A stretch of DNA of 64,000 nt from a phage. Where the stretch lies: the sequence record PZ445488.1; one strand, given 5' to 3'. Shown piece after piece: positions 22,576 to 54,213 of this stretch. Position numbers and translations under genes: made by a program. Under the pieces are notes generated by a model. The model had not been told where the DNA came from and made no database searches. It worked only from the letters and a program-made list of their open reading frames with translations. Numbering within the stretch: the stretch's first letter is position 1; every line of letters starts with the position of its first letter.

Positions 22576-23094
22576 TTAGTAACCATTATCCTGACGTTCA
22601 AAGTTGTGTTGGTTTTTCAAGTAGTAAAGTTTAAAGATTTCTTCAGCCGAAAGACCTAGACCTTGGAACATATTTAGAACGAAATGCAGAATATCAATCA
22701 TTTCAAATTTAATTTCAAGCTGGTCTTCAGGAGACAGTTCATCAATACGACGATTTCGATATTCAGCATGTTGTGCCTTCCACGGCTTCCATACACTGCT
22801 GGCGGCTTTTTCACCATTGCTCATACCACCAAGTGAAGTCAGCAGTTCACGGAATTCATCATCAATATAATCTTTCTGATTACGCAGCCAATCAACAACA
22901 TCACCAGCAGTGGCCAATTCATCAGGATGTTTGTTATGTTCAGGCTTGTCATTTGCCAGACGAACCTGTAAAGATTTTTGCATATCAAGCATTACCTGCA
23001 GTGGGTCTTTATCTTCGTGAATCAGAGCATTAAAATAAGCTTCTTCTGCTTTATCAACACCAGAAATAAGTTGTGAACATTCATTAAAGTGCGC
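22576..23094 (-). CDS. 56: dCTP pyrophosphatase (dCTPase/dUTPase)
   Basis: 172 aa from the second ATG (first ATG lies in the AAAGGAAA RBS); MAHFNEC...DPLQVMLDMQ...ELLTSLG...SPEDQLEIKFE...EEIFKLYYLKN matches recalled T4 gp56. Confidence 0.75.
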   Translation of the reverse strand, partial: AHFNECSQLISGVDKAEEAYFNALIHEDKDPLQVMLDMQKSLQVRLANDKPEHNKHPDELATAGDVVDWLRNQKDYIDDEFRELLTSLGGMSNGEKAASSVWKPWKAQHAEYRNRRIDELSPEDQLEIKFEMIDILHFVLNMFQGLGLSAEEIFKLYYLKNQHNFERQDNGY

Positions 23095-23185
23095 CATTAT
23101 TTTTCCTTTCAATTCAGTATAAGAGAGTTAATTCTAACATTAATTTTATAAAGCGTAATAAATAATAGGTAACCAAGGAGATATT

Positions 23186-28928: not shown

Positions 28929-29270
28929 TTAAAAGAATTTAAATTTTTTCTTGGTTCGTTCATTAAAAGCTTGTTGTACTTGCATTGTAACACATTTTTC
29001 AACATGTGGTGCAAGTTCTGCTTTTCTGTCCTGGTCAAGAACTGCAAAGTCCATTACGATTTTACCATCAACCCAGTCTAGTTTTGTAATATAGACTATA
29101 TGATGAGAACCATCTTCAAGTGTAATCAGAATCTCTTGAATGACATTTTCCATTGCTGAACGGATAATTTTAAGAGATTCATTAAACACTCGTTCTTTGC
29201 GAATGTCTTCCCCTTCCGAAGAAGGGGATTCATCAACGATTTCTAGATTTAAATCATCGAGATTATTCAT
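28929..29270 (-). CDS. 40: gp40-like protein (114 aa)
   Basis: Track ORF 28929-29414 trimmed to Met 29270 to remove the overlap with uvsX; length and position match T4 gp40. Confidence 0.45.
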   Translation of the reverse strand: MNNLDDLNLEIVDESPSSEGEDIRKERVFNESLKIIRSAMENVIQEILITLEDGSHHIVYITKLDWVDGKIVMDFAVLDQDRKAELAPHVEKCVTMQVQQAFNERTKKKFKFF

Positions 29271-30435
29271 CGAAATCTTCCATTTCGTCAAGGTCGTTTT
29301 CAATATCTGCTGCAGACGGAGCATCAGAAGCTTTAACAGGAACTTTAGTTGTTGCTTTGCAATTAATAAGGTCGTTAACAGCGTCATCAACTTCTTTAAT
29401 AGAAGAGATAGCACCTAGTTTATATTTAGTTTCAATTGCATCTCGGAAAGGTTTGTGTTTAAACAACGGTCCCCAGAATTCTACACAATCAGTAGCTTTA
29501 GCACGCCACGATTTCTCTTCACGAATCATTTCACCTGTTTCTTCGTCAAGGAATTCACGAGCATACCAACCAGCTTTAGGCTTAACAACAAATCCAATTT
29601 CAGTTGCCATTTCTAACAAGCCACTGAATGGATCAATACCGCCATCAAAATTAACCGTGATTGGGAAAGTAGATTTCTCTTTAACTGTACGAGATTTTTC
29701 TGCTTTCAACGTGAAGTCATAACCGGTCAATTCTGTACCTTCTTTAACCTGACGTTTAGAGATAAAGAATACAGTGTTAGCAGAGTAAAGAATACCTGTA
29801 CCACCACCCATAATCTCTTTAGGATATAGTCCGCCGATTTCCATTGCTGTATGGTTGATTGCAACACACGGAATATCTTTAATAGTCAGATAAGGAGTCA
29901 CAATGCGGAACAGAGATTTAAGTGCCTTAGCACGAGACATATCACCTACAACTTTCTCGTTCAATGCATCTTCGGTTTCTTTCTTAGATGCAGTATTACC
30001 GATTGAATCGATAAAGATAATAACTTTATCACCGCGTTCAATAGCATCAAGCTGATTAGTCATATCGACTTTAAGTTGTTCGACAGACTGAATTGGTGTA
30101 TGAACTACGCGGTCCAAATCAACACCCATTGAACGAAAATAAGATTCTGAAGCACCAAATTCAGAATCATAGAACAAACAAATTGCATCTTTATATTTCT
30201 TCATATACGCTGCAACCATAGTTAGTCCAAACAGCGTTTTAAAGTGTTTAGAAGGAGCAGCAAAAATAGTTAAGCCTGATTGCAATCCTGCATTCAGAGA
30301 ACCACCTAGTGCGATATTCAACATCGGAATACGAGTAGGGACTTCATCACGATTATTAAACAGCTTAGACTTAGTCAAGTCTGCAGTCATTTTAGAAGTA
30401 GAAGCTTTAATCAGACGAGATTTTAAATCAGACAT
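29263..30435 (-). CDS. uvsX: UvsX recombinase (RecA-like)
   Basis: 390 aa; MSDLKSRLIKASTSK...GWYAREFLDEETGEMIREEKSWRAK matches recalled T4 UvsX over most of its length. Confidence 0.9.
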   Translation of the reverse strand: MSDLKSRLIKASTSKMTADLTKSKLFNNRDEVPTRIPMLNIALGGSLNAGLQSGLTIFAAPSKHFKTLFGLTMVAAYMKKYKDAICLFYDSEFGASESYFRSMGVDLDRVVHTPIQSVEQLKVDMTNQLDAIERGDKVIIFIDSIGNTASKKETEDALNEKVVGDMSRAKALKSLFRIVTPYLTIKDIPCVAINHTAMEIGGLYPKEIMGGGTGILYSANTVFFISKRQVKEGTELTGYDFTLKAEKSRTVKEKSTFPITVNFDGGIDPFSGLLEMATEIGFVVKPKAGWYAREFLDEETGEMIREEKSWRAKATDCVEFWGPLFKHKPFRDAIETKYKLGAISSIKEVDDAVNDLINCKATTKVPVKASDAPSAADIENDLDEMEDFDE

Positions 30436-30533
30436 TGTATTTTTCCATAGGCATCATTATATTTTACTCATGTTTAAAAGATAAGATGATTATATACTAA
30501 GGGTTATACAGCATTTAAAACTTTAAATGGCTC

Positions 30534-31082
30534 TTAACGAGCCCATTTGATGATTTCTGTAATCAAACCATTACGTTCGCTTGCATTAAATCCTATAACT
30601 TTGTTAGCACCATCATGATTAAGTAATTGATATGTTTGGATTTTGTTATGAATTGCAAACTCTTCAAAATGTGAAATGACTGTATTAAAACCGAATGAAG
30701 ACAAAGTAATAAGGTCGTCTTCAAAACTTTCAGTCATTTCGTTACGTGTTAAAATAATTGTGAACACATCATGGTTTTGGCAAAGACGAACATAATCCTG
30801 CTCATAAACATCAAGAACAGAGTCCGCATCTTGACGAATACGTCCATAAACCCAGTTACTAATATATCCACGGTCTAACAGATAAATCTTAGTAGGGTCT
30901 AAATAATTCAACATCGTTTCGAAACAGCCAACTTCATTTCGAGACTTAACATCGAAACGTCCATCAACTGTTCGTTTAGGGAAATCAATCTTTACATATC
31001 TTTCACTAATTTCCATTATGTCATTAATGAAAGTTGTTTTACCGGCATTATCCGGGCCATCTACTAAAATAATTTTAGCCAT
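30534..31082 (-). CDS. P-loop nucleotide kinase, thymidylate-kinase-like
   Basis: 182 aa; Walker A DGPDNAGKTT and DRGYIS (DRY-type) motif; start overlaps stop of the upstream gene. Confidence 0.5.
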   Translation of the reverse strand: MAKIILVDGPDNAGKTTFINDIMEISERYVKIDFPKRTVDGRFDVKSRNEVGCFETMLNYLDPTKIYLLDRGYISNWVYGRIRQDADSVLDVYEQDYVRLCQNHDVFTIILTRNEMTESFEDDLITLSSFGFNTVISHFEEFAIHNKIQTYQLLNHDGANKVIGFNASERNGLITEIIKWAR

Positions 31083-31083
31083 T

Positions 31084-31983
31084 TTATTCCTCGATTACGA
31101 CATCTTCGTATTTAGGTATATTATACGGCGAAGAAATTAAAGCGTTAAAGTAGATGAACTCACCAAGACCTGGATGGAATACTTCTTCAGGATTTTCGAA
31201 ATATTGAATCTTCGGGCGTCCTTTAAGAATTTTATAGTACTCAGTTTTAGTTGGTTTAAAAATTCGAATCAGCGCTTCTTCAGGATACTTATTTCTGTCG
31301 AAGCTATTATTTGGATCGGTTATATAAAGCGGTTGGCCTAATTGAATTGCACATTCAACCACTTGTTCAAAACGATAGCACGGGTCACTAATTCGAAATG
31401 GATGAAAAATACCATCTAGATGAATAGGAGCCAAATCACCTACAAGACGCTGCATGATGGAAGGACGTATAACTTTCTGAGTTACGATAATCTTATTACC
31501 ATCTGCACCGGCGTTAACCAGCACTTCTTTTTGACGTTCATTCAACACAGTAGTTTGAAGTGAACGATTAACCGACAACATATCGGTTTTTAAGAATTCG
31601 TCAATATAAAAACGTGGTTTATTAGGGTCTGCCGTGATATTGAAATTGAATTCTACATCAAAAGCGCCGTCATATCCAGTGATATCTGTTATTAGAAAAT
31701 CACAATCATAATAAGCAATTAATGAATCAACCACAAATTCATTTTCAGACCAGAAATATTTACGAGTGTTATACGCGTTATCTTTATACCATAATGGAAC
31801 AAACTTAAATTCCGGGAAAAGACGTTCACATTCTTTAATATCAGATGCATTACGTGGATATGTAATCACATCACCTGGATTAGCACGGTGCAAATGAAGT
31901 TGGAAGTTGCCATCCTTAAGGATAGCATACTGTCCAGTTTCATAAGACCGCATACTCAAGATTGGTACGCGGAAAATAGCCAT
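31084..31983 (-). CDS. hypothetical protein (299 aa), candidate hmC sugar transferase
   Basis: Sits where T4 carries beta-gt; its ATG overlaps the stop of gene 42 (ATGA). No catalytic motif recognised; the functional call is by position only. Confidence 0.4.
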   Translation of the reverse strand: MAIFRVPILSMRSYETGQYAILKDGNFQLHLHRANPGDVITYPRNASDIKECERLFPEFKFVPLWYKDNAYNTRKYFWSENEFVVDSLIAYYDCDFLITDITGYDGAFDVEFNFNITADPNKPRFYIDEFLKTDMLSVNRSLQTTVLNERQKEVLVNAGADGNKIIVTQKVIRPSIMQRLVGDLAPIHLDGIFHPFRISDPCYRFEQVVECAIQLGQPLYITDPNNSFDRNKYPEEALIRIFKPTKTEYYKILKGRPKIQYFENPEEVFHPGLGEFIYFNALISSPYNIPKYEDVVIEE

Positions 31984-32699
31984 TAGTCAAGGAATCCTTT
32001 AACATAATCAAAATCACGTTCAAACACATGGGCACTTACCATGGTATGAGTATAATCACCAACTTCTACACCGCATTCGTTAGCGATATAATGAAGTAAT
32101 TTTCCTTGGAGATAAAAATCCAACTGCATAACAACAGCACAGTTCTGAGAACGCATATGACAGTGGGTATAAAGCTTACCATCACGAATATAATAAGTTA
32201 CTGAGTCAGTACATGGATATTCAAGTGTTTCGTCCGAATCAAGCAAAGCCTGATCAGAACTTTCTAGAATTTGGAACACAACTCTTCGAGAGTTAGGTTT
32301 TTCTTTAAGTTCTTTTAGAAGAGTTGGTAATTGGGCCGCAATGCGAGGACCATAGAAAGTGTTGAAGTTCGCCGGCAAAACATCTGATTTTGGTTTAGAA
32401 ATAAATTTAGCGACATTAGGATATGCCTTAAACGCTTCTTCTGCGTTGGTACCACCAGAAATCATAAACTTCCAGAAGTCTTCGGCATATTCATAAGAGA
32501 TGCGGTTAATACGTGGGTCGGTCATTTTGAATGATGATGGAGTGTCAACAACTACTGTCATAGACCCAATTTCATTACAACGTCCAATACGAGAATCAGT
32601 TACGAATTCCGGGTTTTCTAAAATTTCACGATTGACTGCTTTAAATGCGGTTTGAAAATCTGCGGCTTTGATATATTTCATTGTGTTATGTTTTCCCAT
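31983..32699 (-). CDS. 42: dCMP hydroxymethylase (thymidylate-synthase fold)
   Basis: 238 aa (T4 gp42 246 aa); NSRR and YPCTD motifs at the positions of the recalled T4 gp42 blocks; synteny. Confidence 0.8.
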   Translation of the reverse strand: MGKHNTMKYIKAADFQTAFKAVNREILENPEFVTDSRIGRCNEIGSMTVVVDTPSSFKMTDPRINRISYEYAEDFWKFMISGGTNAEEAFKAYPNVAKFISKPKSDVLPANFNTFYGPRIAAQLPTLLKELKEKPNSRRVVFQILESSDQALLDSDETLEYPCTDSVTYYIRDGKLYTHCHMRSQNCAVVMQLDFYLQGKLLHYIANECGVEVGDYTHTMVSAHVFERDFDYVKGFLD

Positions 32700-32741
32700 G
32701 TTTACCTCAATACAATTTATTATATACTCAATTCATAAAGC

Positions 32742-32981
32742 TTATTTGAATTTCTTGGCAATGTTGATATAACGTAAAGCTTCAGAATCTATACTTCCAA
32801 GAACACTATGAAGAAATGCATCAGCGTAGTATTCCAATTGAACAGGTTCTTTAATCACTTTAGCCGCTTTGGTTTCAAACAGGCCCATCAGGGCCTTTTT
32901 AAGAATTTGTTCGTTAGTGTTCAGTTTCATAGTCAAAATCTCTTCGTTAAGTTTATAATTAAAACTTTTTCTAGAAATCAT
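32742..32981 (-). CDS. hypothetical protein (79 aa)
   Basis: Track ORF overlapping the stop of the 386-aa gene. Confidence 0.4.
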   Translation of the reverse strand: MISRKSFNYKLNEEILTMKLNTNEQILKKALMGLFETKAAKVIKEPVQLEYYADAFLHSVLGSIDSEALRYINIAKKFK

Positions 32982-34138
32982 TCCGGGTACCTCAAAGCGT
33001 CATCAGAGCTAGTTATATCAATAATAGATATGGAGTTTTCTGCTAACCCGTTTTTAGATAATTGACGTTTATAATATCTTTCACAATATGTACACGTCGT
33101 CCCGCAGATTTCATTAGCACAATCGAAATCTGGATGTCTGAACCACCTTTTTTCTAAAAAGCCATCTAACAAAGAGGTTTCAATATTTACTGTATGTGAA
33201 AACTCAGTTTCGTTTTCAAGAGTGAAAATAGTCTCTAAAGGCTTCCACAGTTCTAACAAATTACCTTCAAACTTTTCAGAAGCGTATGCTTCAAGAACTT
33301 TCAAAATGTAGTCTGTGCTACCTGTACGTCCTGAAACTTTGAATTGAGTGATACCAATATCATTATAAAGTTTCAAATCTTGAGGACGAACAAAACGAGT
33401 TCTCAGCCAGTTAAATGGGTCTGTATCACGAGCTTTAATACAGTGTTGCATTGGATATCCATTTAAGGATTTAGCATCATCAGCGGTAACATCAGTACTA
33501 TGGAAAATATAGCAAGAGTCACGATAGCTACAATGTGTTGTATACCCTTTACCAGCATTAGAACAGAACTCATTTACAAGAACTTCAAATATTATATTGT
33601 TCTTATTGCAAAACTCTGCTGCACGCTTCAGGAAAGAAACTGAACGGTTCTTATGAATTCCGCAGCAGACCTTTTTGATATTATATTGGTCATGCAAGTA
33701 TTTGATTTGAGTTACAGCATCGACATGTAGAATTGTTGAAACTTCAATCTCAATATCTTTATTGACTTCACGAACAATTTCCATAACAACAGGGTTAGCG
33801 ATAGTAATACGCCATACGCCTATTGACCAAAGATACTGAACATAATCCTGAATAGCTTTCTTCTTCCACTCAACTAGTTCTCTTTTTGAACCAGGATTTA
33901 TCGTGTTGAGTGTATAGTTAAAGCAAATACCTAATTCGTTACAACGTTTAACGTAATCTTCTAACATCTTTTTGTCAACGTCAGGAAGCCTAAAATCAGG
34001 TCTGGCTGCTACAAAAGCCATTTCTCTTGTAGAGCCGTATACTTCGTTTATCAAGCTATTAGGATAAGTTTTATTGAGCTCTACGATTTTATCAAGAAGA
34101 GCTAAATCAAAATTCGTTCCGATTTTAAAAGTATTCAT
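32978..34138 (-). CDS. hypothetical Cys-rich protein (386 aa), possible Fe-S / U32-like enzyme
   Basis: Cys clusters EFCSNAGKGYTTHCSYRDSCYIFHS and C-terminal CANEICGTTCTYC (Cx4Cx3Cx2C); not the radical-SAM CxxxCxxC layout; fold unassigned. Confidence 0.4.
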   Translation of the reverse strand: MNTFKIGTNFDLALLDKIVELNKTYPNSLINEVYGSTREMAFVAARPDFRLPDVDKKMLEDYVKRCNELGICFNYTLNTINPGSKRELVEWKKKAIQDYVQYLWSIGVWRITIANPVVMEIVREVNKDIEIEVSTILHVDAVTQIKYLHDQYNIKKVCCGIHKNRSVSFLKRAAEFCNKNNIIFEVLVNEFCSNAGKGYTTHCSYRDSCYIFHSTDVTADDAKSLNGYPMQHCIKARDTDPFNWLRTRFVRPQDLKLYNDIGITQFKVSGRTGSTDYILKVLEAYASEKFEGNLLELWKPLETIFTLENETEFSHTVNIETSLLDGFLEKRWFRHPDFDCANEICGTTCTYCERYYKRQLSKNGLAENSISIIDITSSDDALRYPE

Positions 34139-34195
34139 TTTTTTTGCATCTCACGTTAATTGATGCGATGGTTTTTGCAGGTCTTACTTAAATTA

Positions 34196-34597
34196 TTATA
34201 GATTAGGTTTATATGATTTAAATGTTTCGAATTCGCCTTTATTCATAAGAGCTTTGAATTCGTCAGGACGCATAGCTTTGTCGTCGATAATCCAATCATA
34301 TACTGGTTTATGTGTTAGCAAATTATGGTACTTCAAGCCAATGTTTGCCAAGTTCTGAATCAGACTTGGGAGAATGTCAATTGCTATACGACCAGGACCT
34401 ACTGACTTCATACCACGAGCCGTGTAAAGCGTTATGGTATGCCCTGCATCATACAGGGCATTAATGGCAGACACCATTTCGACGTCTGGTTTGAAGTTCA
34501 CGTAATCACGATTGTTATTCCATTCCGTGATGCAATCATCGATATCAAAACAAAGATTAAGCATGTTTTCTACATGGTGCATTAGATTCGTTCCCAT
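34196..34597 (-). CDS. HAD-like phosphatase (small)
   Basis: Ordered motifs FDIDDCIT (I), ITLYTARG (II), THKP (III), DWIIDD (IV); likely starts at Met 34582, overlapping the upstream stop. Confidence 0.45.
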   Translation of the reverse strand: MGTNLMHHVENMLNLCFDIDDCITEWNNNRDYVNFKPDVEMVSAINALYDAGHTITLYTARGMKSVGPGRIAIDILPSLIQNLANIGLKYHNLLTHKPVYDWIIDDKAMRPDEFKALMNKGEFETFKSYKPNL

Positions 34598-36270
34598 TGA
34601 TGAGTGATATCGCCACCGATTGGACGATAGGAAACACCAGTTTCTTTATCAGTTAGTACCCATTTACCAGGATTTTTTGTAATCAGAGTAGCCGTTACAG
34701 GTTCTGCTACGTCATAACTAATAGAGCCGTCTTGAAGTACACGGCCCATGTTATGTAATTGCTTAGTCAGAAGTTCCATACCTTTATAATATGCGGCCAC
34801 CGCTTTAAGTGGATTATTCTTGAAATAACCACCTAATGCAATCCAGATAATTGCTACTGCCAAATGATGATACTCATTAAACGAACTCATCTTTCCATAT
34901 TTGTAAACTAATGGATTGATGTTAATAGTCACATTACAAGTTGTTTCATCAATAGTAAACTGACCCCAGGTCGGATTAGCATTGAATTCATCATAACCTG
35001 AAACAGCATAAAGCACTTTAGCTTCATCGTACAATTTTGGCCCGTAAATCTTGGTTTCACCAAAATATCCACGAGGGTCGATAAACTTGACTTCACCATT
35101 ATCAGTAATCATAGTATTACTGAAGTTCGGGTCGCCGTGAATAACAGAGTACTGTCCCTGAGAACGGTTATGATAACGAATAAGATGTTCTAAAGCTTGT
35201 TTCAACATTGGCTTCAGACGTCCAATCTTAGTGTAGTTCACGTGTGTGATTTTACCAAATGAATCAATCAATGGCTGAATGCTTTCACAACGATCAATAA
35301 CTTTCGTATAGAACTCTTTAGTGAAATCACGGCGAACAGTTTCAGGACTTACAAAATAAGTGTCTGTGCTGAATTTCAGTGCATCTAAAATTGCATCAAC
35401 AATTTGTGGACGAGCAAGACTTGATTTGGATTTAATATATTCAAATGCCGGCTTACCTTTAATGCGTTCCATAATAAAGTGGCCGCCAGGATGATAACTT
35501 ACAATCCGTGGAACTGAATCTGATTTAACTTTCTTATACCAATTGACTTCATCTTTTTGAAGTGCAACGCCCTGTTCTGTTAAAGCAATCTTTGTTACCG
35601 TTTCTTCGCCAATTTCAACTGCATTAAAACTACGATTAAGTTCACGAACTTCATGAGCTTTTTCAAGTTTAGGCATATCACCTAAATCAATTAGATTCAT
35701 AAGCTCTGATTTATTGAATGCACTACCGTAAAGGAATTCTACGAAATCACGTCCTTTGCAGTATTCGTGAATTTCCTCATCAGTAGAACCCATGTAGAAT
35801 TCCCAGTCTTTGAACTGATAAATTCCTACAACATTACCACCTGTTGAACCTACGTTAGTGATATTTTCACCATCGAAATTATATCGACATTCATCACCCT
35901 TAACATAGATTGCGTTAACATTCCAAGACCATGAACCAAAGTCAGGAATAATATCACACCAGTTAACAATTACGTTATGGCCATCTAAATCTTTGTATAA
36001 TTTAGCAAGAGCATAAGCAGAACCATACGCTTCATCAACTGTACGAATAGTCACATTGAACCCTTCTTGCTCGCAATAAGCTCGAACAGTTTCAGCAAAT
36101 TTTGAATGAACTACTACAATAATTTCATCTGCGCCAAGGTCAGAATAAATTGTATACAAATTGCTCAGAATAGTGTCTTGTTTATAGTTAACAAGCACCT
36201 TAGGAATATGGTGCGTTATTGGATACAAACGAGTTGCCAGTCCAGCACCAAGAATAACAGCTTTTTTCAT
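34582..36270 (-). CDS. bifunctional sugar-1-phosphate nucleotidyltransferase (RmlA/GlmU-like) + anomeric sugar kinase (APH/choline-kinase fold)
   Basis: 562 aa; N-terminus AVILGAGLATRLYPIT (G-x-G-T-R-L-x-P-x-T); C-terminal half has HGDPNFSN (Brenner HGDxxxxN) and FIDPRG (DFG-like). Confidence 0.7.
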   Translation of the reverse strand: MKKAVILGAGLATRLYPITHHIPKVLVNYKQDTILSNLYTIYSDLGADEIIVVVHSKFAETVRAYCEQEGFNVTIRTVDEAYGSAYALAKLYKDLDGHNVIVNWCDIIPDFGSWSWNVNAIYVKGDECRYNFDGENITNVGSTGGNVVGIYQFKDWEFYMGSTDEEIHEYCKGRDFVEFLYGSAFNKSELMNLIDLGDMPKLEKAHEVRELNRSFNAVEIGEETVTKIALTEQGVALQKDEVNWYKKVKSDSVPRIVSYHPGGHFIMERIKGKPAFEYIKSKSSLARPQIVDAILDALKFSTDTYFVSPETVRRDFTKEFYTKVIDRCESIQPLIDSFGKITHVNYTKIGRLKPMLKQALEHLIRYHNRSQGQYSVIHGDPNFSNTMITDNGEVKFIDPRGYFGETKIYGPKLYDEAKVLYAVSGYDEFNANPTWGQFTIDETTCNVTININPLVYKYGKMSSFNEYHHLAVAIIWIALGGYFKNNPLKAVAAYYKGMELLTKQLHNMGRVLQDGSISYDVAEPVTATLITKNPGKWVLTDKETGVSYRPIGGDITHQWERI

Positions 36271-36308
36271 GTTGTGGTCCTCATTGGTAAGTAGGTGTAT
36301 TGTACACT

Positions 36309-36455
36309 ATTCTAGTTAAAGCATTCATACTTTGCTTGTAGTCCAATCATAATCCATCCGATTATAAGAGTCGGAATCATTACTGGAGCCGTTAAGCTCC
36401 AGTAGATAGTCATGACAAGCATCAATAGTAAAAGTCCTATTGTTATTGCTTTCAT
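36309..36455 (-). CDS. small membrane peptide (48 aa)
   Basis: Hand-translated MKAITIGLLLLMLVMTIYWSLTAPVMIPTLIIGWIM...; ATG overlaps the TGA of the isomerase gene. Confidence 0.3.
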
Positions 36456-37087
36456 TGTTCGCCTCGTAACATGGCACCTAGTGCACCACCAGGGTGGAAC
36501 TTAAGGAAGTCATTAGAGGTAAATCCGCGTTCAGACGAAAGGTTGATAGCGAACGTATCGATAAGCGCTAACAACAATGTAGTGGACATTGTAGGAGCCA
36601 GAGAATTCTCATCAACCTCTACCGCGATACCGGTACAGAATGTATAATCAAAAAGAGCTTCGTATTCTTGTGGAATGTCCGGGTTACAATGCAACAGAAT
36701 CTGTTTGACATTTGGACGAATCATTTTAAGATGCTTAGCCACGCCTATCATTTCTTCAGTCTTACCAGAACGACTAATATGAATCAACACATCATTAGGC
36801 GCAATGAATCCTGCATCACCGTGAGAATAATGCCCAGTGTTCAAGTACATACTCGGGATACCGAGCGAAGCAAATGTCTCAGAAGCTTTAGTTGCAATAT
36901 TAGCATTCTTACCAACACCTGTAATAATTACTCGGCTTTCATAATTACTAAGTCCAGGGCGTCGAAGAGTTTCTAGAATAGCATTATAACGAGCAGGGTT
37001 TTGACTAATTACTTTGGCCATAGCGGCCAAAGAAGAAGCTTGTTTTATGATTGCGTCAATAGCGATAGTAATAGGAGTAGTTTTCAT
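36452..37087 (-). CDS. SIS-domain sugar-phosphate isomerase, KdsD/GutQ-like arabinose-5-phosphate isomerase (no CBS domains)
   Basis: 211 aa; TGVGKNANIATKASETFASLGIPS...HGDAGF...ISRSGKTEE...LAPTMSTT...RGFT.NDF..HPGGALG aligns block-for-block with recalled E. coli KdsD SIS domain. Confidence 0.7.
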   Translation of the reverse strand: MKTTPITIAIDAIIKQASSLAAMAKVISQNPARYNAILETLRRPGLSNYESRVIITGVGKNANIATKASETFASLGIPSMYLNTGHYSHGDAGFIAPNDVLIHISRSGKTEEMIGVAKHLKMIRPNVKQILLHCNPDIPQEYEALFDYTFCTGIAVEVDENSLAPTMSTTLLLALIDTFAINLSSERGFTSNDFLKFHPGGALGAMLRGEQ

Positions 37088-37127
37088 ATTTCTCTCATTT
37101 AATTAGTTTACCGTCCATGACATTATA

Positions 37128-39839
37128 TCAAAAATCGAACATATCGAACAGAGATGCTTTCTTCTCGTAATCGAGTTTCGCTGCTGATGTGAATCCTTCA
37201 AGTGGTTTAATAAATGTCTTCTCAAGGAGAACAGTGTAGTCCATCCAATGAAGTACGTCGTCTTTAATTAAATCTGTGATTTCAGTACCAGAAGGCCATG
37301 CGATACATTTATCACCGAATGGGTTTCCATCACGTAAAGGCAGAACGTATACCTTTTCGCCTTCTACAACTTGTGGAGCATCAATATTACCTTTGATAGC
37401 TCTGTTATATGTCAGAATTCCACGAATATGGAACGGGCATTTAGGACCAGGGAATCCACCAACGTCATATTTAGCAATGTTATTCGCAGAAGATACCGAC
37501 GCGATGCTAATATAATTCAATTGACGGAATTCTTTTTCAAACTCTTTAAAATATTCTTGTAATGATTCTTCACCTTCTTGAAGCATACGACGAATACATT
37601 CTTTAAGAGCTTTCTGTACTGCTTTAGGGGTCGAAGATTTCTGTGTTTCGAGACCCATGATTTTGAGTTTAGGCTCAGCGTATCTGGTTCCTTCCATATC
37701 CCACACGTTTAATGCATAACGTTTCTTACCAGTCCAGAATCCACCAATACCTTTAGAACCGAGTGGAGGACCAGCAATAGCTTCTCGGTCCATGAACATC
37801 AAATGTTGCTTATTATTCATGTATTCACACATTTCACGGAAACCTCTATCAATAGCCGGTTCCATACGTTCACGAGCAAACTTATCTAAGAAGTCTACCC
37901 AATGGTTGGTATCACGGAATTTAGATTCACCAACCTTATCGATAATTTTATCAGCAGATACGTAAATAGAGTCTGTATCACCATAAAGAACGAAAGCTTC
38001 ACCTTCTGTACCACAAACTTCATTCAGATATTCATTAACTTTACGTTCAATCCACTGTAAAGCCATTTGCCCGAATGTTGTGATTGCAGTAGCATTACGC
38101 AAATCATAATAACGGAACCAAACGTTACCAAGTGCACCATAAAGCGAGTTGATGAGCAATTTACGGTTAATTTGTGCAGTCATACCTGCAACTTCAGTAC
38201 GTTGAGCTCTAAACAACATTTCATTAAGAGATTTAGCAGACAACTTTTTAATCTTTTCTTTAATCTCGTCAGTGAAGTCGAAACGATAATCAACATCTAA
38301 TGGTTCGTCAACAGAAAGATTAGGATTATGTAACGCCTCTTTAATTATTTCACCATTACGTTGAGCCGCAAGCATATAACCTTTATGTTCTTTACGTTGA
38401 TTAAAGACCTTAGTGATTTCAGTTGGAACTACACCATCACGGTCTTTATAATACATCATGCCGTTAGGAGAGCAACTGTACACATCTGAAGGACGTTCAG
38501 CGATTGCGTTAATATAATCATGCAATGGAGCTACTTTAAACGTTCCTGCTATTGTTTCTGGGCTAATATTCACTTGGCGAATAATACTTGGATACAGAGA
38601 TGTAAGGTCGAAACTCATTACATATTTGTATCGATTTGGAATAGGTTCCTTAACAAAAGCGCCAGGATAAGGTTGAACCGGGTGAGAACGACCTTGTGGA
38701 ATCACCTTGTTCTGCTCTTTAAGGCTATTAAAAATAATAGCATCCCATGTTTTAATTGGGCTGAACACAGATTGAATCTGTATCTTAGCATAATAACCCA
38801 TGTCCAAACTCAAGTTGATGAACTGGCGCTTAGCATCAATTTGCAATACACGATACACGTCGATAATGTTATAAGAAATATATCGTTGGTGATTGCTTTC
38901 ACGAAGCTTAGAAATAGGGCCGTCATATTTCAGTTTACCGACATTCAATTCAAATTCTGAAATGTAATCCAGAGAATACGACGGTTGGTTTGTGAAAGAG
39001 AATTTTTTGTAAAGGTCAATGTAATCAAGAACAGAAATACCGAACAATGTAATGATTTCACGAGAACCATACATGTTTTCGATAACTTTAACACGAGTTT
39101 TACGATGTGGTGATAAACGTTTCGCAGTAGATTCGCCAAAAATATTCTTGATTCGGTTATACACATATGGAATATCAAATGACTCAACGTTCCATCCGGT
39201 TAAAATGACAGGAGTTTTCTGTTGCCAGAAGTTGAGATATTCCATCAACAATTCTTTTTCGTTATCGAACGGCATATAAATGATTTTATCGATAATTTCG
39301 GATGGAACTTCATCACCACCTTGTTCTTGAAGCTTAGCCGCAATTTCGATAGACCATTCTTCTACATTACCATATGGAGAATTCAAAAGGTCGAATACGT
39401 AGAACCTGTCGTCAATTGAGTCATAATGGGTGATAGCATCAATCGGATGTTTTGCTTGTGACGGCTCAGGGAACCCATCCGGAGATGTTACTTCGATATC
39501 GAAGTTAGCCACACGAATTTTTGTATGGTCGTATTTGATTTCATAGTTATAAGTGTCAGACAAATACGACAATTTGAAATCGTCCATACCTAATGCTTCA
39601 AGACCGATATCTTCCATGCGTTTAATCCATTGGGAGGCATCACGCATATTAGCGAACAACTTACGAGTACACGGCTTACCGTAGATATCGAAATATTTCG
39701 TAGCCTGACTTTCTGGACAATGAGCAAACAATGATGGTTTATATTCTACTTCACGAGTACGTTCACGGCCATTAGAATCGATGTAACGTTCAAAAATTGA
39801 ATCACCAATCTGTTCAACCGTTAAGTAAAATTCTTTCAT
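37128..39839 (-). CDS. 43: DNA polymerase (family B) with 3'-5' exonuclease
   Basis: 903 aa (T4 gp43 898 aa); YGDTDS polymerase motif C and SLYPS motif A; uninterrupted. Confidence 0.9.
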   Translation of the reverse strand: MKEFYLTVEQIGDSIFERYIDSNGRERTREVEYKPSLFAHCPESQATKYFDIYGKPCTRKLFANMRDASQWIKRMEDIGLEALGMDDFKLSYLSDTYNYEIKYDHTKIRVANFDIEVTSPDGFPEPSQAKHPIDAITHYDSIDDRFYVFDLLNSPYGNVEEWSIEIAAKLQEQGGDEVPSEIIDKIIYMPFDNEKELLMEYLNFWQQKTPVILTGWNVESFDIPYVYNRIKNIFGESTAKRLSPHRKTRVKVIENMYGSREIITLFGISVLDYIDLYKKFSFTNQPSYSLDYISEFELNVGKLKYDGPISKLRESNHQRYISYNIIDVYRVLQIDAKRQFINLSLDMGYYAKIQIQSVFSPIKTWDAIIFNSLKEQNKVIPQGRSHPVQPYPGAFVKEPIPNRYKYVMSFDLTSLYPSIIRQVNISPETIAGTFKVAPLHDYINAIAERPSDVYSCSPNGMMYYKDRDGVVPTEITKVFNQRKEHKGYMLAAQRNGEIIKEALHNPNLSVDEPLDVDYRFDFTDEIKEKIKKLSAKSLNEMLFRAQRTEVAGMTAQINRKLLINSLYGALGNVWFRYYDLRNATAITTFGQMALQWIERKVNEYLNEVCGTEGEAFVLYGDTDSIYVSADKIIDKVGESKFRDTNHWVDFLDKFARERMEPAIDRGFREMCEYMNNKQHLMFMDREAIAGPPLGSKGIGGFWTGKKRYALNVWDMEGTRYAEPKLKIMGLETQKSSTPKAVQKALKECIRRMLQEGEESLQEYFKEFEKEFRQLNYISIASVSSANNIAKYDVGGFPGPKCPFHIRGILTYNRAIKGNIDAPQVVEGEKVYVLPLRDGNPFGDKCIAWPSGTEITDLIKDDVLHWMDYTVLLEKTFIKPLEGFTSAAKLDYEKKASLFDMFDF

Positions 39840-39886
39840 TATTTTTCCTTTAGACGAGTTATTGTCTTTTGTTTGTTGATGAACTT

Positions 39887-39915
39887 ATTATACTCCAAAT
39901 GGGACCGAAGTCCCA
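39887..39915 (-). promoter_or_regulatory. regA-43 intergenic stem-loop with adjacent -10-like box
   Basis: tgggac-cgaa-gtccca hairpin 5 nt after the regA stop; minus-strand TATAAT immediately downstream, about 50 nt before the gene 43 ATG. Confidence 0.4.
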
Positions 39916-39920
39916 TTGCT

Positions 39921-40298
39921 TTAATTACCAATTGTATATTTTGCTTTCAAAGTCCAGTCATCTTTCTGTTTAAAAGAGATAACACGGAAGTTATTAGTCA
40001 GGCCAAACAGATCTTCACGAGCAGAGTCTTCAATAACAATCAAGCCCCAGTCTTCAAGCAACTGAGCAATCGAATCACGACGCTGATAGTCTTCACCATC
40101 AATATCAACCTGACGTCCATCCATACGCAACATTTCTTTAAAGTGGACAATATAGTACTTACCTTGCTTTTGGAGGATATGACAAGACTGGTAAAGGACT
40201 TTATCTTTGTTATTAGCGATGCCCATACGGGTTAGAGTCTCTTTGACTTTCAGAAAATCTTCAGGGTTCTTCAATTTAATTTCAATCATTTTTACCAT
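39921..40298 (-). CDS. regA: RegA translational repressor
   Basis: 125 aa; [28 protein letters not shown]...[15 protein letters not shown]...[11 protein letters not shown] matches recalled T4 RegA. Confidence 0.8.
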
Positions 40299-40855
40299 TC
40301 CAATGCTAATTTTTTAAATTGTTTTTGTTCTTTTACGTTTTTAGTAACTTCTTTGAGAAATTCATCAGTGACCATGGCCTTCAGTTCTTTAAGGACTATT
40401 GGCAACTTGTTATTTTTTTCAAGGAGCCGCTTATACTCGGTAGCATCATTCATGTTGATTGTGTAATGTTTCATCAACAGTTTGATAACTAGTAACTCTG
40501 AAGTGTCTTCGACTAGTTTAGCCCATTTAGAGAATCGACGACCACGCGGAATTGCCGCCATCATATAGTTGAAGTGCGCTTCATCACTTAATTCAGAACC
40601 GACTAAGTTCATCATGTAAACGGCTGGCATACATTCTGGAAACTGTGATAATGAGTTCTCAACCATAAATTTTGAGTAGTCGACCTGAGCAATTGACATA
40701 GATTTCTTTTCATTAATAGCATTAATGATTTTAAAGAATTCATTCTCAGGTTTTTCTTTAAACATATCAGCACATTTTTGAATCGCATCAGCGTCATTAG
40801 ACTTCCATGCAATTTGGTGCTCGTTAAGCTGGACGTCATCATCGAATAAGTTCAT
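40292..40855 (-). CDS. 62: clamp loader small subunit
   Basis: 187 aa (T4 gp62 187 aa); between regA and 44. Confidence 0.75.
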
Positions 40856-51458: not shown

Positions 51459-51929
51459 TTAATCATGTTTCCACACCCCATCGGTATTTGACCAAAGTCG
51501 CTGATTATCTGATCCTCGCCACAGCTTTTTGGTCGGAAGATTTTTCTCATACTTCCCATCAATAATAACATCAACATATTTAAGCATTTCTAGCTGTTTA
51601 ATATCTTCAAACTTATATCCTGTCCACAACCAAATGCTTTTATTGGGATAAAGATTTTTTACTGTTTGAACAATGTAATGAATAACATCTCGGTTATCAG
51701 GATAGAGAGGGTCTCCTCCGGTTATAGTTAATCCTTCTATATAATCATTATTCAAACATTCAATTAATTGTTCTAGTGTTTCACCAGTGAATGGAATACC
51801 ATTTCTAGCGTTCCATGTTGATTTATTATAACACCCTTCGCATTTATGCAAACAACCTGTAACGAAAAGAACGACCCTACAACCAGGGCCATTCACAAAA
51901 TCGCAAGGATAAAATCTATCATAATTCAT
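51459..51929 (-). CDS. nrdG: anaerobic ribonucleotide reductase activating protein (radical SAM)
   Basis: 156 aa (T4 NrdG 156 aa); CLHKCEGC = CxxxCxxC cluster. Confidence 0.8.
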   Translation of the reverse strand: MNYDRFYPCDFVNGPGCRVVLFVTGCLHKCEGCYNKSTWNARNGIPFTGETLEQLIECLNNDYIEGLTITGGDPLYPDNRDVIHYIVQTVKNLYPNKSIWLWTGYKFEDIKQLEMLKYVDVIIDGKYEKNLPTKKLWRGSDNQRLWSNTDGVWKHD

Positions 51930-53743
51930 TGGTGTTTAACCCTATGCATGATTTCTTTATTTTTACCGAGATTAAATCCGCGTTCGTTCGGATTTCCAAG
52001 ATAACCGCATGTTCTTCTTATGGTGTTCATCTTTTTAGGATCAGTTTCTCCACAAACTGAACAAACAAATCCGTTTTCAGTAGGAGTCATTTCATGGGTA
52101 CTTCCACACGTAAAACATTTATCTACTGGCATATTAACACCAAAATAATCTAAATGTTGTGCAGCATAATCCCACACAGCCTCAAGACCTTTTAGGTTAT
52201 TTTTCATATCAGGAAGTTCAACATAAGAAATGTGACCACCTGTCGCAATGAAATGATATGGCGCTTCACGAGAAATCTTTTCAAACGGAGTAATATTTTC
52301 TTCTACTGAAACATGGAAACTATTAGTGTACCAGCCTTTATCAGTGACATCCTTTACACTTCCATATTTTTCTGTATCAAGTTTACAGAAACGATAACAC
52401 AAGTTTTCAGCAGGAGTAGAATATAAACTAAAAGCAAATCCAGTTCTTTCAGTCCACTGTTTAAGATGAGCATTCATTTTAGTTAAAATTTCTTGTCCAA
52501 TATCACGACCAACAAGAATATTCAATTCATGAATACCAATATATCCTAAAGACACTGAACTTCTACCGTTTTTAAATAACTCAATTATATCATCGTCGGG
52601 TTTAAGACGAACACCAAATGCACCTTCTTGGTAAAGAATAGGAGCAACAGTAGCTTTAACTCCTTTTAAGGAACTAATTCTACACATCAAGGCTTCAAAG
52701 CACAGATCCATTCGTTCATTAAATAACTCAACAAATTTCTGTTCATTGAACTGTGTTCCAATATAAGAATCTAACGCGATGCGAGGAAGATTCAGTGTTA
52801 CAACACCGAGATTATTACGTCCATCAAGAATTTCATTACCAGTCGAATCTTTCCATACACTCAAGAAACTACGGCAGCCCATTGGAGAAACAGGAATAGA
52901 TGAGCCGGTGATAGCTTTATTATTCTTAACAGAAATAATGTCAGGATACATTCTTTTGCTTGCACACTCTAGAGCGAGTTGCTTAATATCATAGTTCGGA
53001 TCGTCTTTATAAAGATTAACACCCTCTTCGACAAACATAACAAGTTTAGGGAAAATAGGAGTTATTCCATCACGACCAAGACCTTTAATCCGATTTTTCA
53101 GAATTGCTTTCTGAATCATTCGTTCGGTCCAATCAGTTCCAGTACCAAATGTAATTGTTACAAAAGGCGTTTGCCCGTTTGAACTAAAAAGAGTATTTAC
53201 CTCATACTCATAAGCTTGAAATGCGTCATATACATCTTTTTCTGTTTTAGATTGAGCATAATTCAGAATGTCTGGTATTTGCCATTTTTCTGCATCTTCA
53301 ACATGTTTAGCGTATGTACGTTTAACATAAGGAGAAAGAACTTTATCGACATTCGCAAATGTAGTTCCGCCGTACTGATGTGAAGCAACTTGTGCAGTAA
53401 TTTGTGCCATAATTGCAGTAGCAACACCAATCGATTTAGGCGTTTCAATTTGAGCATTGCCCAATTTAAATCCGTTCTCAAGCATCCCCTTTAAATCGAC
53501 TAAACAGCAATTGGTAAACGGAAGAGCAGGAGAATAATCAATATCATGCATGTGGATAATTCCACTTTCATGCGCATTCATAATAAAAGACGGGACCATA
53601 TTTTTGGCAATGTGCTTAGACACAATACCAGCCATAAGGTCCCGTTGAGTTGGAAAAACACGAGAATCTTTATTAGCATTCTCGTTCAAAAGATCTTTAT
53701 TAGTTTTATAAATTAATCCTTCAATTTCTTTTTCAATTTTCAT
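51926..53743 (-). CDS. nrdD: anaerobic ribonucleoside-triphosphate reductase
   Basis: 605 aa, uninterrupted; C-terminal glycyl-radical motif RRTCGYLG and CxxC zinc site. Confidence 0.85.
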   Translation of the reverse strand: MKIEKEIEGLIYKTNKDLLNENANKDSRVFPTQRDLMAGIVSKHIAKNMVPSFIMNAHESGIIHMHDIDYSPALPFTNCCLVDLKGMLENGFKLGNAQIETPKSIGVATAIMAQITAQVASHQYGGTTFANVDKVLSPYVKRTYAKHVEDAEKWQIPDILNYAQSKTEKDVYDAFQAYEYEVNTLFSSNGQTPFVTITFGTGTDWTERMIQKAILKNRIKGLGRDGITPIFPKLVMFVEEGVNLYKDDPNYDIKQLALECASKRMYPDIISVKNNKAITGSSIPVSPMGCRSFLSVWKDSTGNEILDGRNNLGVVTLNLPRIALDSYIGTQFNEQKFVELFNERMDLCFEALMCRISSLKGVKATVAPILYQEGAFGVRLKPDDDIIELFKNGRSSVSLGYIGIHELNILVGRDIGQEILTKMNAHLKQWTERTGFAFSLYSTPAENLCYRFCKLDTEKYGSVKDVTDKGWYTNSFHVSVEENITPFEKISREAPYHFIATGGHISYVELPDMKNNLKGLEAVWDYAAQHLDYFGVNMPVDKCFTCGSTHEMTPTENGFVCSVCGETDPKKMNTIRRTCGYLGNPNERGFNLGKNKEIMHRVKHQ

Positions 53744-54213
53744 TTTAAACTCTTTCTAAGCTGCTTTTTGAATGAAGCTATTAATTGTGTTTTAGTATCA
53801 GATTCATTATATTCAAATCCTCTTTGAAGCATCTCAGTCATCATTTCCTCTTTACCTAGTCTTGAGAACTCTTTAGTTTTGTCTGGAACAAAATTAGGAT
53901 GGATATTATTATCAGAATAATCTTGTTTCAAATAAGCAAGAAGAGCTTCAAGCCATTCGAGGTAGTCGACATCACGACCTTTAAGACCAGAACGGTTGAA
54001 CTTATGCTTCATTTGGCCTTCTGCTGCGTTGCACAGATTACAGAGTAATCCACGAACTCTACCGGCTTTTGGCCCGTTTAACTCGTGGTCGTGGTCAAGA
54101 TGGTTACCTTGAACATCAGGGTCTAATTCACGGTGGCAAATAGGACACTTACCGTTCTGTGCATCATAAAATTTTTGTTTTTCTTCTTTATATTTTGCGC
54201 CTGATAATAACAT
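53740..54213 (-). CDS. 49: endonuclease VII (Holliday junction resolvase)
   Basis: 157 aa (T4 EndoVII 157 aa); CPICHREL...HLDHDH His-Me finger; TATAAATA late promoter 30 nt upstream. Confidence 0.8.
   Translation of the reverse strand: MLLSGAKYKEEKQKFYDAQNGKCPICHRELDPDVQGNHLDHDHELNGPKAGRVRGLLCNLCNAAEGQMKHKFNRSGLKGRDVDYLEWLEALLAYLKQDYSDNNIHPNFVPDKTKEFSRLGKEEMMTEMLQRGFEYNESDTKTQLIASFKKQLRKSLK

Follow-up and report, generated by a model that had tools for sequence, protein, structure and literature searches.

A probable arabinosyl-5-hydroxycytosine DNA hypermodification cluster of the RB69 type in a Mosigvirus genome, with a U32-family protein as a possible accessory hydroxylase

The stretch of phage DNA analysed here, 64,000 nucleotides of sequence record PZ445488.1 ('the window'), belongs to a Mosigvirus genome. 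Judged by orthology, the block at positions 30534-37087 is very probably an arabinosyl-5-hydroxycytosine DNA hypermodification cluster of the type carried by phages RB69 and HY126. The cluster and most of its enzymology have already been published, and the window is one further isolate of this known system. An earlier reading made from the letters of the stretch alone (the sequence-only reading) had proposed an arabinose-nucleotide pathway for cytosine hypermodification of the RB69 type; pathway and type both hold, and the base is 5-hydroxycytosine (5hoC), not 5-hydroxymethylcytosine (hmC) (PMC13326640, PMC13390438). The block also encodes a protein of the U32 family, whose possible part in the modification is treated separately below.

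Over the block the DNA is 97.2% identical to RB69 and 97.1% identical to HY126, and 152 phage records span at least 80% of it. Synteny with RB69-like genomes, a comparison that the sequence-only reading had suggested, was found. RB69 gp45-gp55 together with gp3, and the Afh cluster of HY126, agree with the window in genes, gene order, genomic position, the signature residues of the hydroxylase and both glycosyltransferases (GTs), with protein identities of 91-100% overall (91-99.6% to the RB69 counterparts, 94.7-100% to those of HY126). The solved structures 9iqc and 9iqz are of proteins near-identical to those of the window. What separates the window from RB69 and HY126 are isolate-level differences only, such as an open reading frame (ORF) of 79 amino acids (aa), here called orf79, which is full length in the window and 40 aa in HY126. 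In the RB69 reference record the 299-aa and 562-aa genes are each split in two, which Thomas et al. and Lee et al. ascribe to sequencing errors (PMC6024577, PMC13326640); both genes are intact in the window and in HY126. Two window proteins, the thymidylate-synthase (ThyA) homolog and NrdD, have 100% protein identity to the products of two short GenBank entries for Escherichia phage CEV1 (KM389390, KM389391), and the window may be CEV1 itself or a phage very near to it.

The chemistry has been worked out in these relatives. Thomas et al. 2018 described arabinose in RB69 DNA using high-performance anion-exchange chromatography (HPAEC) and matrix-assisted laser desorption/ionization (MALDI), named the modification arabinosyl-hmC, pointed to this eight-gene module and named ORF003c as transferase (PMC6024577). 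Using liquid chromatography-mass spectrometry (LC-MS) and nuclear magnetic resonance (NMR), Lee et al. 2026 found mono- and di-arabinosyl-5-hydroxycytosine in place of the cytosines of RB69, the sugar being attached via an ether oxygen directly on C5; the ThyA homolog of RB69, gp48, produced 5-hydroxy-dCMP in vivo, took the oxygen from 18O2 and had flavin bound (PMC13326640). In DNA of the Mosigvirus NP, an independent study found 5-ara-dC and 5-ara-ara-dC and called the hmC assignment erroneous (PMC13390438). For HY126, He et al. 2026 as cited in PMC13326640 describe AfhE as a kinase of arabinose 5-phosphate (Ara-5-P), giving Ara-1,5-P2, and as a UDP-arabinose pyrophosphorylase, and AfhF as the HAD enzyme that strips the 5-phosphate before UDP-arabinofuranose is formed. 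The hydroxylase and its O2 source, the kinase, the pyrophosphorylase, the phosphatase and the RB69 nucleoside structure have thus been shown by others in close orthologs, in part as relayed by that citation. We infer the isomerase activity, the allocation of the GT steps, the substrate of the first transfer and the role of the thymidylate-kinase-like (Tmk-like) protein.

Base and sugar branches of the pathway

Family assignments were made by scanning the proteins against Pfam, NCBIfam and PHROG. The ThyA homolog matches Pfam Thymidylat_synt (1.9e-15) and, over its full length, PDB entries 9iqc, 9ir2 and 9iqu (2.9e-160). It is 98.7% identical to RB69 gp48 and 97.5% identical to its HY126 counterpart, against 29% identity to T4 gp42. 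Its residues were compared in an alignment with T4 gp42 and with E. coli ThyA, the sequence of the latter having been checked against PDB. Asparagine at the position of E. coli ThyA D169 is a predictor of synthases of 5-hydroxy-dCMP (5hodCMP) (Lee et al., PMC13326640), and the site reads RSQN in the window, RSCD in ThyA and RSND in gp42, that is, D169N in the window and Asp in gp42. N177D (LDF vs PFN) and L143E are also present, and all three substitutions recur in the HMMER alignment to S. aureus ThyA. D169N, the low identity to gp42 and the 9iqc-type match therefore do not support the label 'dCMP hydroxymethylase' that the protein had been given. By homology we assign it as a predicted flavin- and O2-dependent dCMP 5-hydroxylase (5hodCMP synthase), the ortholog of RB69 gp48.

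It is very improbable that the enzyme is nevertheless a true dCMP hydroxymethylase, which would make hmC for arabinosyl-hmC from a sugar that is dephosphorylated from Ara-5-P to free arabinose and then phosphorylated at C1. The 2018 HPAEC/MALDI work did propose arabinosyl-hmC for RB69 (PMC6024577), the window enzyme is a member of the ThyA superfamily with the dCMP-specifying N177D, and a phosphatase-first wording still stands in Table 1 of PMC13326640. Against this, the C5-O ether link seen in RB69 DNA by NMR/LC-MS and the 18O2-derived oxygen in the 5hodC formed by gp48 have already refuted arabinosyl-hmC for RB69 (PMC13326640), the hmC assignment has been termed erroneous (PMC13390438), and the window enzyme differs from gp42 as described above. 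The order Ara-5-P to free arabinose to Ara-1-P, which the sequence-only reading had adopted, is not borne out either, as the text of PMC13326640, citing He et al. 2026, lets the kinase act on Ara-5-P first and the HAD enzyme second, with no free arabinose.

The same branch includes a homolog of the gp56 dCTPase elsewhere in the window (PHROG 173 nucleoside triphosphate pyrophosphohydrolase, 1.8e-45; 94.4% identical to RB69 gp56); gp56 is counted among the pathway members in PMC13326640. The system resembles the glucosyl-hmC system of T4 (gp42, alpha-GT and beta-GT) in its predicted logic, in which a ThyA-family enzyme modifies dCMP before replication, a dCTPase clears dCTP and GT-B enzymes attach the sugar of a UDP-sugar to the new hydroxyl, and in the slot of its genes between uvsX and 43. 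It differs in that T4 adds a hydroxymethyl group with methylene-tetrahydrofolate, has Asp at the D169 position and draws UDP-glucose from the host, whereas the window system would add a hydroxyl group with flavin and O2, has Asn at this position and would use arabinofuranose made by the phage.

By family, the phage-encoded route to UDP-arabinofuranose is complete, comprising an Ara-5-P isomerase, a kinase/nucleotidyltransferase and a HAD phosphatase. The SIS protein matches Pfam SIS (1.7e-10) and the NCBIfam models KpsF/GutQ (2.2e-32) and KdsD (1.2e-30). It lacks CBS domains, since its alignment covers only positions 47-202 of the 328 in the NCBIfam model. With 99.1% identity to the RB69 protein and 100% to that of HY126, it is predicted to be a SIS-only Ara-5-P isomerase, the ortholog of RB69 gp55, converting ribulose-5-P to Ara-5-P; for RB69 too this function is a prediction and not an assay result (PMC13326640). 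The SIS gene is missing from some clusters, among them those of Klebsiella phage CP-p-KP-21072 and Dhakavirus IME341, which presumably draw Ara-5-P from host KdsD/GutQ.

The 562-aa protein shows Pfam NTP_transferase at residues 3-99 (1.5e-9) and weak Pfam matches to APH, Fructosamin_kin and EcKL at residues 238-410, in line with the fusion proposed before. It also matches the cytidylyltransferase of PDB 1jyk (2e-5) and is 99.1% identical to its HY126 counterpart. From these matches it is classed as a sugar-1-P nucleotidyltransferase (N-terminal) joined to an APH-fold kinase (C-terminal), the ortholog of AfhE and RB69 gp52:53. The HAD protein falls in NCBIfam TIGR01689, capsule biosynthesis phosphatase (3.7e-13), and is 94.7% identical to the HY126 protein, the difference being one of start-codon call. 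It is assigned, likewise by homology, as the small phosphatase that would convert Ara-1,5-P2 to Ara-1-P, the ortholog of AfhF and RB69 gp51. At fold level the SIS, HAD, nucleotidyltransferase/kinase and Tmk-like assignments of the sequence-only reading were all right (Pfam, NCBIfam, PHROG). The HAD gene has two in-frame ATG starts, at 34597 (16-nt overlap with the preceding gene) and at 34582 (TAATG junction); the latter agrees with the HY126 and RB69 annotations (128 aa).

Both GT-B transferase types of the system are present in the window, the gp46:47 type within the cluster and the gp3 type near rIIA. The 299-aa protein (GT299), which had been recognised as coupled to the ThyA homolog and left unassigned, is a putative GT-B glycosyltransferase, the ortholog of RB69 gp46:47 and first (base-proximal) arabinosyltransferase. 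A sequence search of GT299 against PDB gave no useful match. In hhalign its family and T4 beta-gt reached a probability of 0.16%; only the general GT-B fold is common to them, and no sequence similarity was detectable between GT299 and the 366-aa GT of the window. Several records label GT299 'RNA polymerase binding protein'; this looks like an annotation error that has been passed on. The 366-aa GT, which the sequence-only reading had overlooked, shares 98.9% identity with RB69 gp3, and over residues 1-366 it matches PDB 9iqz/9ir0 'phage HY126 glycosyltransferase' (1e-248). It is the proposed second arabinosyltransferase, ortholog of RB69 ORF003c/gp3, which would add the second arabinose (PMC6024577, PMC13326640); the allocation of gp46:47 to the first transfer and gp3 to the second is the proposal of Lee et al. 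(PMC13326640).

The Tmk-like protein matches PHROG 761 'thymidylate kinase' (5.7e-45) and, weakly, Pfam and NCBIfam models; a sequence search against PDB gave no match. Its gene adjoins those of the GT and the ThyA homolog in every cluster examined, and we take the protein to be a P-loop kinase, the ortholog of RB69 gp45, with a presumed role in the pathway.

Put together, the pathway would run as follows. The ThyA-superfamily enzyme would hydroxylate dCMP at C5 with flavin and O2, the phage dNMP kinase and the host nucleoside diphosphate kinase would raise the product to 5-hydroxy-dCTP, and with dCTP cleared by the gp56 dCTPase the polymerase would insert 5hoC instead of C. In the sugar branch the SIS isomerase would turn ribulose-5-P into arabinofuranose-5-P, the C-terminal kinase domain of the 562-aa enzyme would phosphorylate C1 to give Ara-1,5-P2, the HAD phosphatase would take off the 5-phosphate and the N-terminal nucleotidyltransferase domain would form UDP-arabinofuranose. 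GT299 would then place the first arabinose on the 5-hydroxyl, either on DNA or on the mononucleotide, and the 366-aa GT would add the second, so that the DNA would carry mono- and di-arabinosyl-5hoC, blocking restriction and CRISPR nucleases.

Two points weigh against this reading. The modification in this phage is argued from orthology, the chemistry being that of its relatives, and single GTs were inactive on 5hoC DNA (PMC13326640). That the sugar genes serve instead for remodelling of the host surface, capsule or lipopolysaccharide (KpsF/Kdo-type) is hardly credible, as, in spite of a SIS protein closest to KpsF/KdsD and a HAD protein in a capsule biosynthesis phosphatase subfamily, they share an operon with a base hydroxylase and a GT at the place of T4 gene 42/beta-gt, arabinose is present in RB69 virion DNA (PMC6024577, PMC13326640), and neither a synthase of 3-deoxy-D-manno-octulosonic acid (Kdo) nor a CMP-Kdo synthetase was found in the block by the Pfam/NCBIfam scans.

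Related clusters for glycosyl-5hoC in Acinetobacter phage DLP3, Lazarusvirus and Rhizobium phage RL38J1 share the core of hydroxylase, GT and Tmk-like kinase (PMC13326640), and the Acinetobacter phages also share the SIS, nucleotidyltransferase/kinase and HAD genes with the window. These clusters differ in having no U32 or chorismate mutase gene, in having extra GTs (tri-arabinosyl or hexosyl forms) and in protein identities of 43-68% to the window.

Layout of the locus

The block consists of nine minus-strand ORFs flanked by uvsX (29263-30435) and the DNA polymerase gene 43 (37128-39839). Its features and those of the two pathway genes outside it are given in Table 1. The seven ORFs that had been listed for it are all present on this strand with the sizes given (182, 299, 238, 386, 133, 562 and 211 aa), and the list lacked the two small ORFs of 79 and 47 aa. 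The equivalent interval of T4 reads uvsX-segA-beta-gt-42-imm-imm.1-43, and the block does replace the imm/beta-gt region, as had been stated.

Table 1. Predicted genes of the modification cluster and of its distant members in the window.
Feature	Size	Position	Strand	Place or basis
SIS protein	211 aa	36452-37087	-	first in transcription order
Hydrophobic mini-ORF	47 aa	36312-36455	-	second in transcription order
Nucleotidyltransferase/kinase fusion	562 aa	34582-36270	-	third in transcription order
HAD-type protein	133 aa	34196-34597	-	fourth in transcription order
U32-family protein	386 aa	32978-34138	-	fifth in transcription order
orf79	79 aa	32742-32981	-	sixth in transcription order
ThyA homolog	238 aa	31983-32699	-	seventh in transcription order
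GT299	299 aa	31084-31983	-	eighth in transcription order
Tmk-like protein	182 aa	30534-31082	-	last in transcription order
Second glycosyltransferase	366 aa	9151-10251	-	between rIIA and topoisomerase gene 39; ~20 kb from main cluster
gp56 dCTPase homolog		22576-23112	-	PHROG 173, RB69 gp56 identity

Inspection of the junction sequences showed TAATG, ATGA or short overlaps at most gene boundaries of the cluster, and the translational coupling claimed earlier was seen. The junction is TAATG between the ThyA homolog and GT299, a 1-nt gap between GT299 and the Tmk-like kinase, and ATGA both between U32 and orf79 and between the SIS gene and the 47-aa ORF; between the nucleotidyltransferase/kinase and HAD genes it is a 16-nt overlap or TAATG, depending on the HAD start codon chosen. 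Scans of 29000-40500 for sigma-70 promoters and for terminators were uninformative (37 promoter-like sites vs 42.6 expected; 5 terminator-like sites vs 6.5 expected).

The 47-aa ORF (MKAITIGLLLLMLVMTIYWSLTAPVMIPTLIIGWIMIGLQAKYECFN) is strongly hydrophobic and ATGA-coupled to the SIS gene. Its HY126 copy is 100% identical, and the matching slot of Serratia phage LC53 is taken by a 47-aa ORF described as a 'transmembrane segment'. The family of orf79 is confined to Mosigvirus-like sequences and is frameshifted or cut to 40-58 aa in many isolates; the gene looks like a replacement or a decaying gene and is probably dispensable. Its slot next to U32 is the one in which 51 related phages have a chorismate mutase. 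As a chorismate mutase orf79 was rejected (no Pfam/NCBIfam match at E<=10; hhalign against the phage chorismate mutases 0.25%).

The U32-family protein

The 386-aa protein had been described as Cys-rich, which holds with 13 Cys, and its membership in the U32 family had not been recognised; it is the ortholog of RB69 gp50. It matches Peptidase_U32 (PF01136) with 7e-11 and 42.2 bits, the Pfam cutoff being 22.4. A sequence search of PDB returned nothing useful for it, and an AlphaFold2 (AF2) model (predicted local distance difference test, pLDDT, 91.7; predicted template modelling score, pTM, 0.90) has as best PDB match the U32 protein 5d88, with a template modelling (TM) score of 0.70 normalised to target. 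Ten of the Cys are invariant or nearly so in 121 U32 homologs (down to ~49% identity), the conserved ones being C158, C177, C192, C203, C209, C233 and a C-terminal C340-x4-C345-x3-C349-x2-C352. Four of these Cys may ligate a [4Fe-4S] cluster. In the family profile 'YRDSC209Y' is placed opposite 'YSGQC176Y' of E. coli RlhA, and K[IV]xGR, a motif of TrhP, RlhA and UbiU, is recovered as well. The E. coli paralogs score 15.0 (TrhP), 9.2 (RlhA), 6.0 (UbiU) and -1.4 bits (UbiV) on this profile, values too low for reliable ranking. When the window is compared with Serratia phage LC53, no protein of the cluster is better conserved than U32 (82.8% vs 59-78% for the others).

The U32 proteins RlhA, TrhP and UbiU/UbiV are tied to O2-independent hydroxylation that needs prephenate, and prephenate is the oxygen donor in anaerobic ubiquinone synthesis. 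In RlhA, C169, C176 and two C-terminal Cys are essential for 5-hydroxycytidine in 23S rRNA; TrhP forms with the O2-dependent TrhO a dual route to 5-hydroxyuridine. The window protein resembles RlhA (ho5C2501 in 23S rRNA), TrhP (ho5U34 in tRNA) and UbiU/UbiV in its PF01136 domain, its TIM barrel like that of 5d88, the U32-motif Cys, K[IV]xGR and further invariant Cys including the C-terminal cluster, and RlhA and TrhP hydroxylate C5 of a pyrimidine, the position that is hydroxylated in 5hoC. It differs in belonging to a separate, phage-rich subfamily (at most 15 bits) and in the proposed deoxynucleotide or DNA substrate, which is without precedent.

In many relatives of the cluster the U32 gene is accompanied by a gene for chorismate mutase, the prephenate-making enzyme. 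In Entb_45 (Enterobacter) and Thanatos-2 (Shewanella) the small gene overlapping the U32 stop is a chorismate mutase (CM_2 40.9 and 32.8 bits, cutoff 27), and tblastn found this mutase in 51 phage records with the hosts Klebsiella, Serratia, Yersinia, Enterobacter, Edwardsiella, Erwinia, Pectobacterium, Escherichia (EcS1), Shewanella, Providencia and Morganella. The Serratia phages with the mutase include LC53 and 92A1, both among the phages with arabinosyl-5hoC according to Lee et al. (PMC13326640). Six loci were opened. The mutase directly follows U32 in four of them (Entb_45, Thanatos-2, LC53 and a Klebsiella phage), and one more small ORF separates the two in 92A1 and a Morganella phage. 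In five of the six the ThyA homolog comes directly after the mutase, the U32-mutase pair of Thanatos-2 being relocated within the cluster. A copy from a Klebsiella phage matches, along its whole length, chorismate mutases of solved structure (1ybz and 2d8d). In Acinetobacter phage fHyAci03 and the E. coli Dhakavirus IME341 the cluster has no U32-mutase pair, and a HAD or kinase gene abuts the hydroxylase gene. The pair is an accessory cassette. Homologs of the hydroxylase were counted in 374 phage records (57 Acinetobacter and 20 Rhizobium among them) and U32 in 222, with both Acinetobacter and Rhizobium missing from the U32 tally; NrdD, the anaerobic ribonucleotide reductase, has the same Acinetobacter gap. 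U32 is absent from phages of strict aerobes.

Remote U32 homologs (50-58% identity) lie on huge-phage-like contigs (one of 466 kb) beside genes for a dCMP deaminase and for DNA polymerase III, and on another contig beside NT5C, dNK and a nucleoside deoxyribosyltransferase. These neighbourhoods are of deoxynucleotide type, not of sugar or protease type, and such loci could mark further hydroxypyrimidine DNA modifications. The loci concerned are L006 6001-7939, L008 5504-7826 and L007 6001-8888. On the huge-phage contigs a conserved gene of 248-254 aa is coupled to U32; as a GT299-type transferase it found no support (hhalign 0.4%, and in Pfam weak epimerase matches only).

By analogy with RlhA, TrhP and UbiU/UbiV, we tentatively suggest for the U32 protein the role of an accessory C5 hydroxylase, dependent on prephenate and independent of O2, that would act on deoxycytidylate or DNA and sustain 5hoC without oxygen. 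The prephenate would come from the phage mutase or, in the Mosigviruses, where the mutase would have been lost, from host PheA/TyrA. There would then be two routes to 5hoC, the flavin/O2 enzyme and a U32 back-up during anaerobic growth of the host, mirroring TrhO/TrhP for tRNA and NrdAB/NrdDG for dNTPs.

We hold this role to be possible but doubtful because precedent in vitro and on DNA is lacking, Dhakaviruses do without U32, the clades are few and the window has no recognisable chorismate mutase. To our knowledge no U32 enzyme acts on deoxynucleotides or DNA. No recognisable chorismate mutase was found in the window cluster. Dhakaviruses infect E. coli and have no U32, so some phages of a facultative anaerobe can do without it. 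The correlation of U32 with host range rests on few independent clades. Furthermore, hydroxylation in vitro has to date been shown for no U32 enzyme (PMC10990095), and Table 1 of PMC13326640 labels RB69 gp50 'sugar or heterocycle reductase'. All these points count against a hydroxylase role.

There is about an even chance that U32 is not a hydroxylase of this pathway, and is instead the reductase of that label, a collagenase-type peptidase, or a hydroxylase of tRNA or rRNA that merely lies within the operon. The best PDB match, 5d88, carries a peptidase annotation, the characterised U32 hydroxylases have RNA or quinone substrates (PMC5727448, PMC6599085, PMC10990095), and Acinetobacter phages and Dhakaviruses run the pathway without U32. 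On the other side, no reduction step is required between ribulose-5-P and UDP-arabinofuranose, and no peptidase mechanism is known for U32 (PMC5727448). An RNA substrate or a peptidase would sit poorly with remote homologs that lie among genes of deoxynucleotide enzymes and not among RNA or protease genes, and in many genera the U32 gene is both flanked by and coupled to those for chorismate mutase and the C5-hydroxylase, as would suit prephenate chemistry at C5. The words U32 and gp50 do not occur in the text of PMC13326640, and full-text searches that combined these phages with U32 or chorismate mutase returned nothing relevant, though Mahler et al. 2025 and He et al. 2026 may discuss U32.

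Oxygen and the modified DNA

At 51459-53743 on the minus strand the window encodes NrdD (605 aa, 51926-53743, PF13597 3e-171) along with the activase NrdG (156 aa); the endonuclease VII gene comes next, at 53740-54213. With NrdD and NrdG the phage is therefore equipped for anoxic replication, though the published cytosine hydroxylase needs O2. An O2-requiring hydroxylase is in tension with the replication of these phages in a largely anoxic gut and with their anaerobic ribonucleotide reductase, and the tension would be resolved if U32 supplies 5hoC without O2.

As published, arabinosyl-5-hydroxycytosine protects phage DNA against restriction enzymes and CRISPR nucleases and at the same time lays it open to attack by type IV systems such as BrxU, and the modification affects the sequencing and engineering of therapeutic Mosigviruses. 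Should the proposed role of U32 be true, it would be the first U32 enzyme, and the first oxygen donation by prephenate, in DNA metabolism. Prephenate-dependent hydroxylation, so far a matter of RNA and quinones, would then reach DNA precursors as well. The full modification of a gut phage's DNA in the absence of oxygen would be accounted for, and U32 would be a marker gene for new hydroxypyrimidine modifications in uncultured phages of anaerobes.

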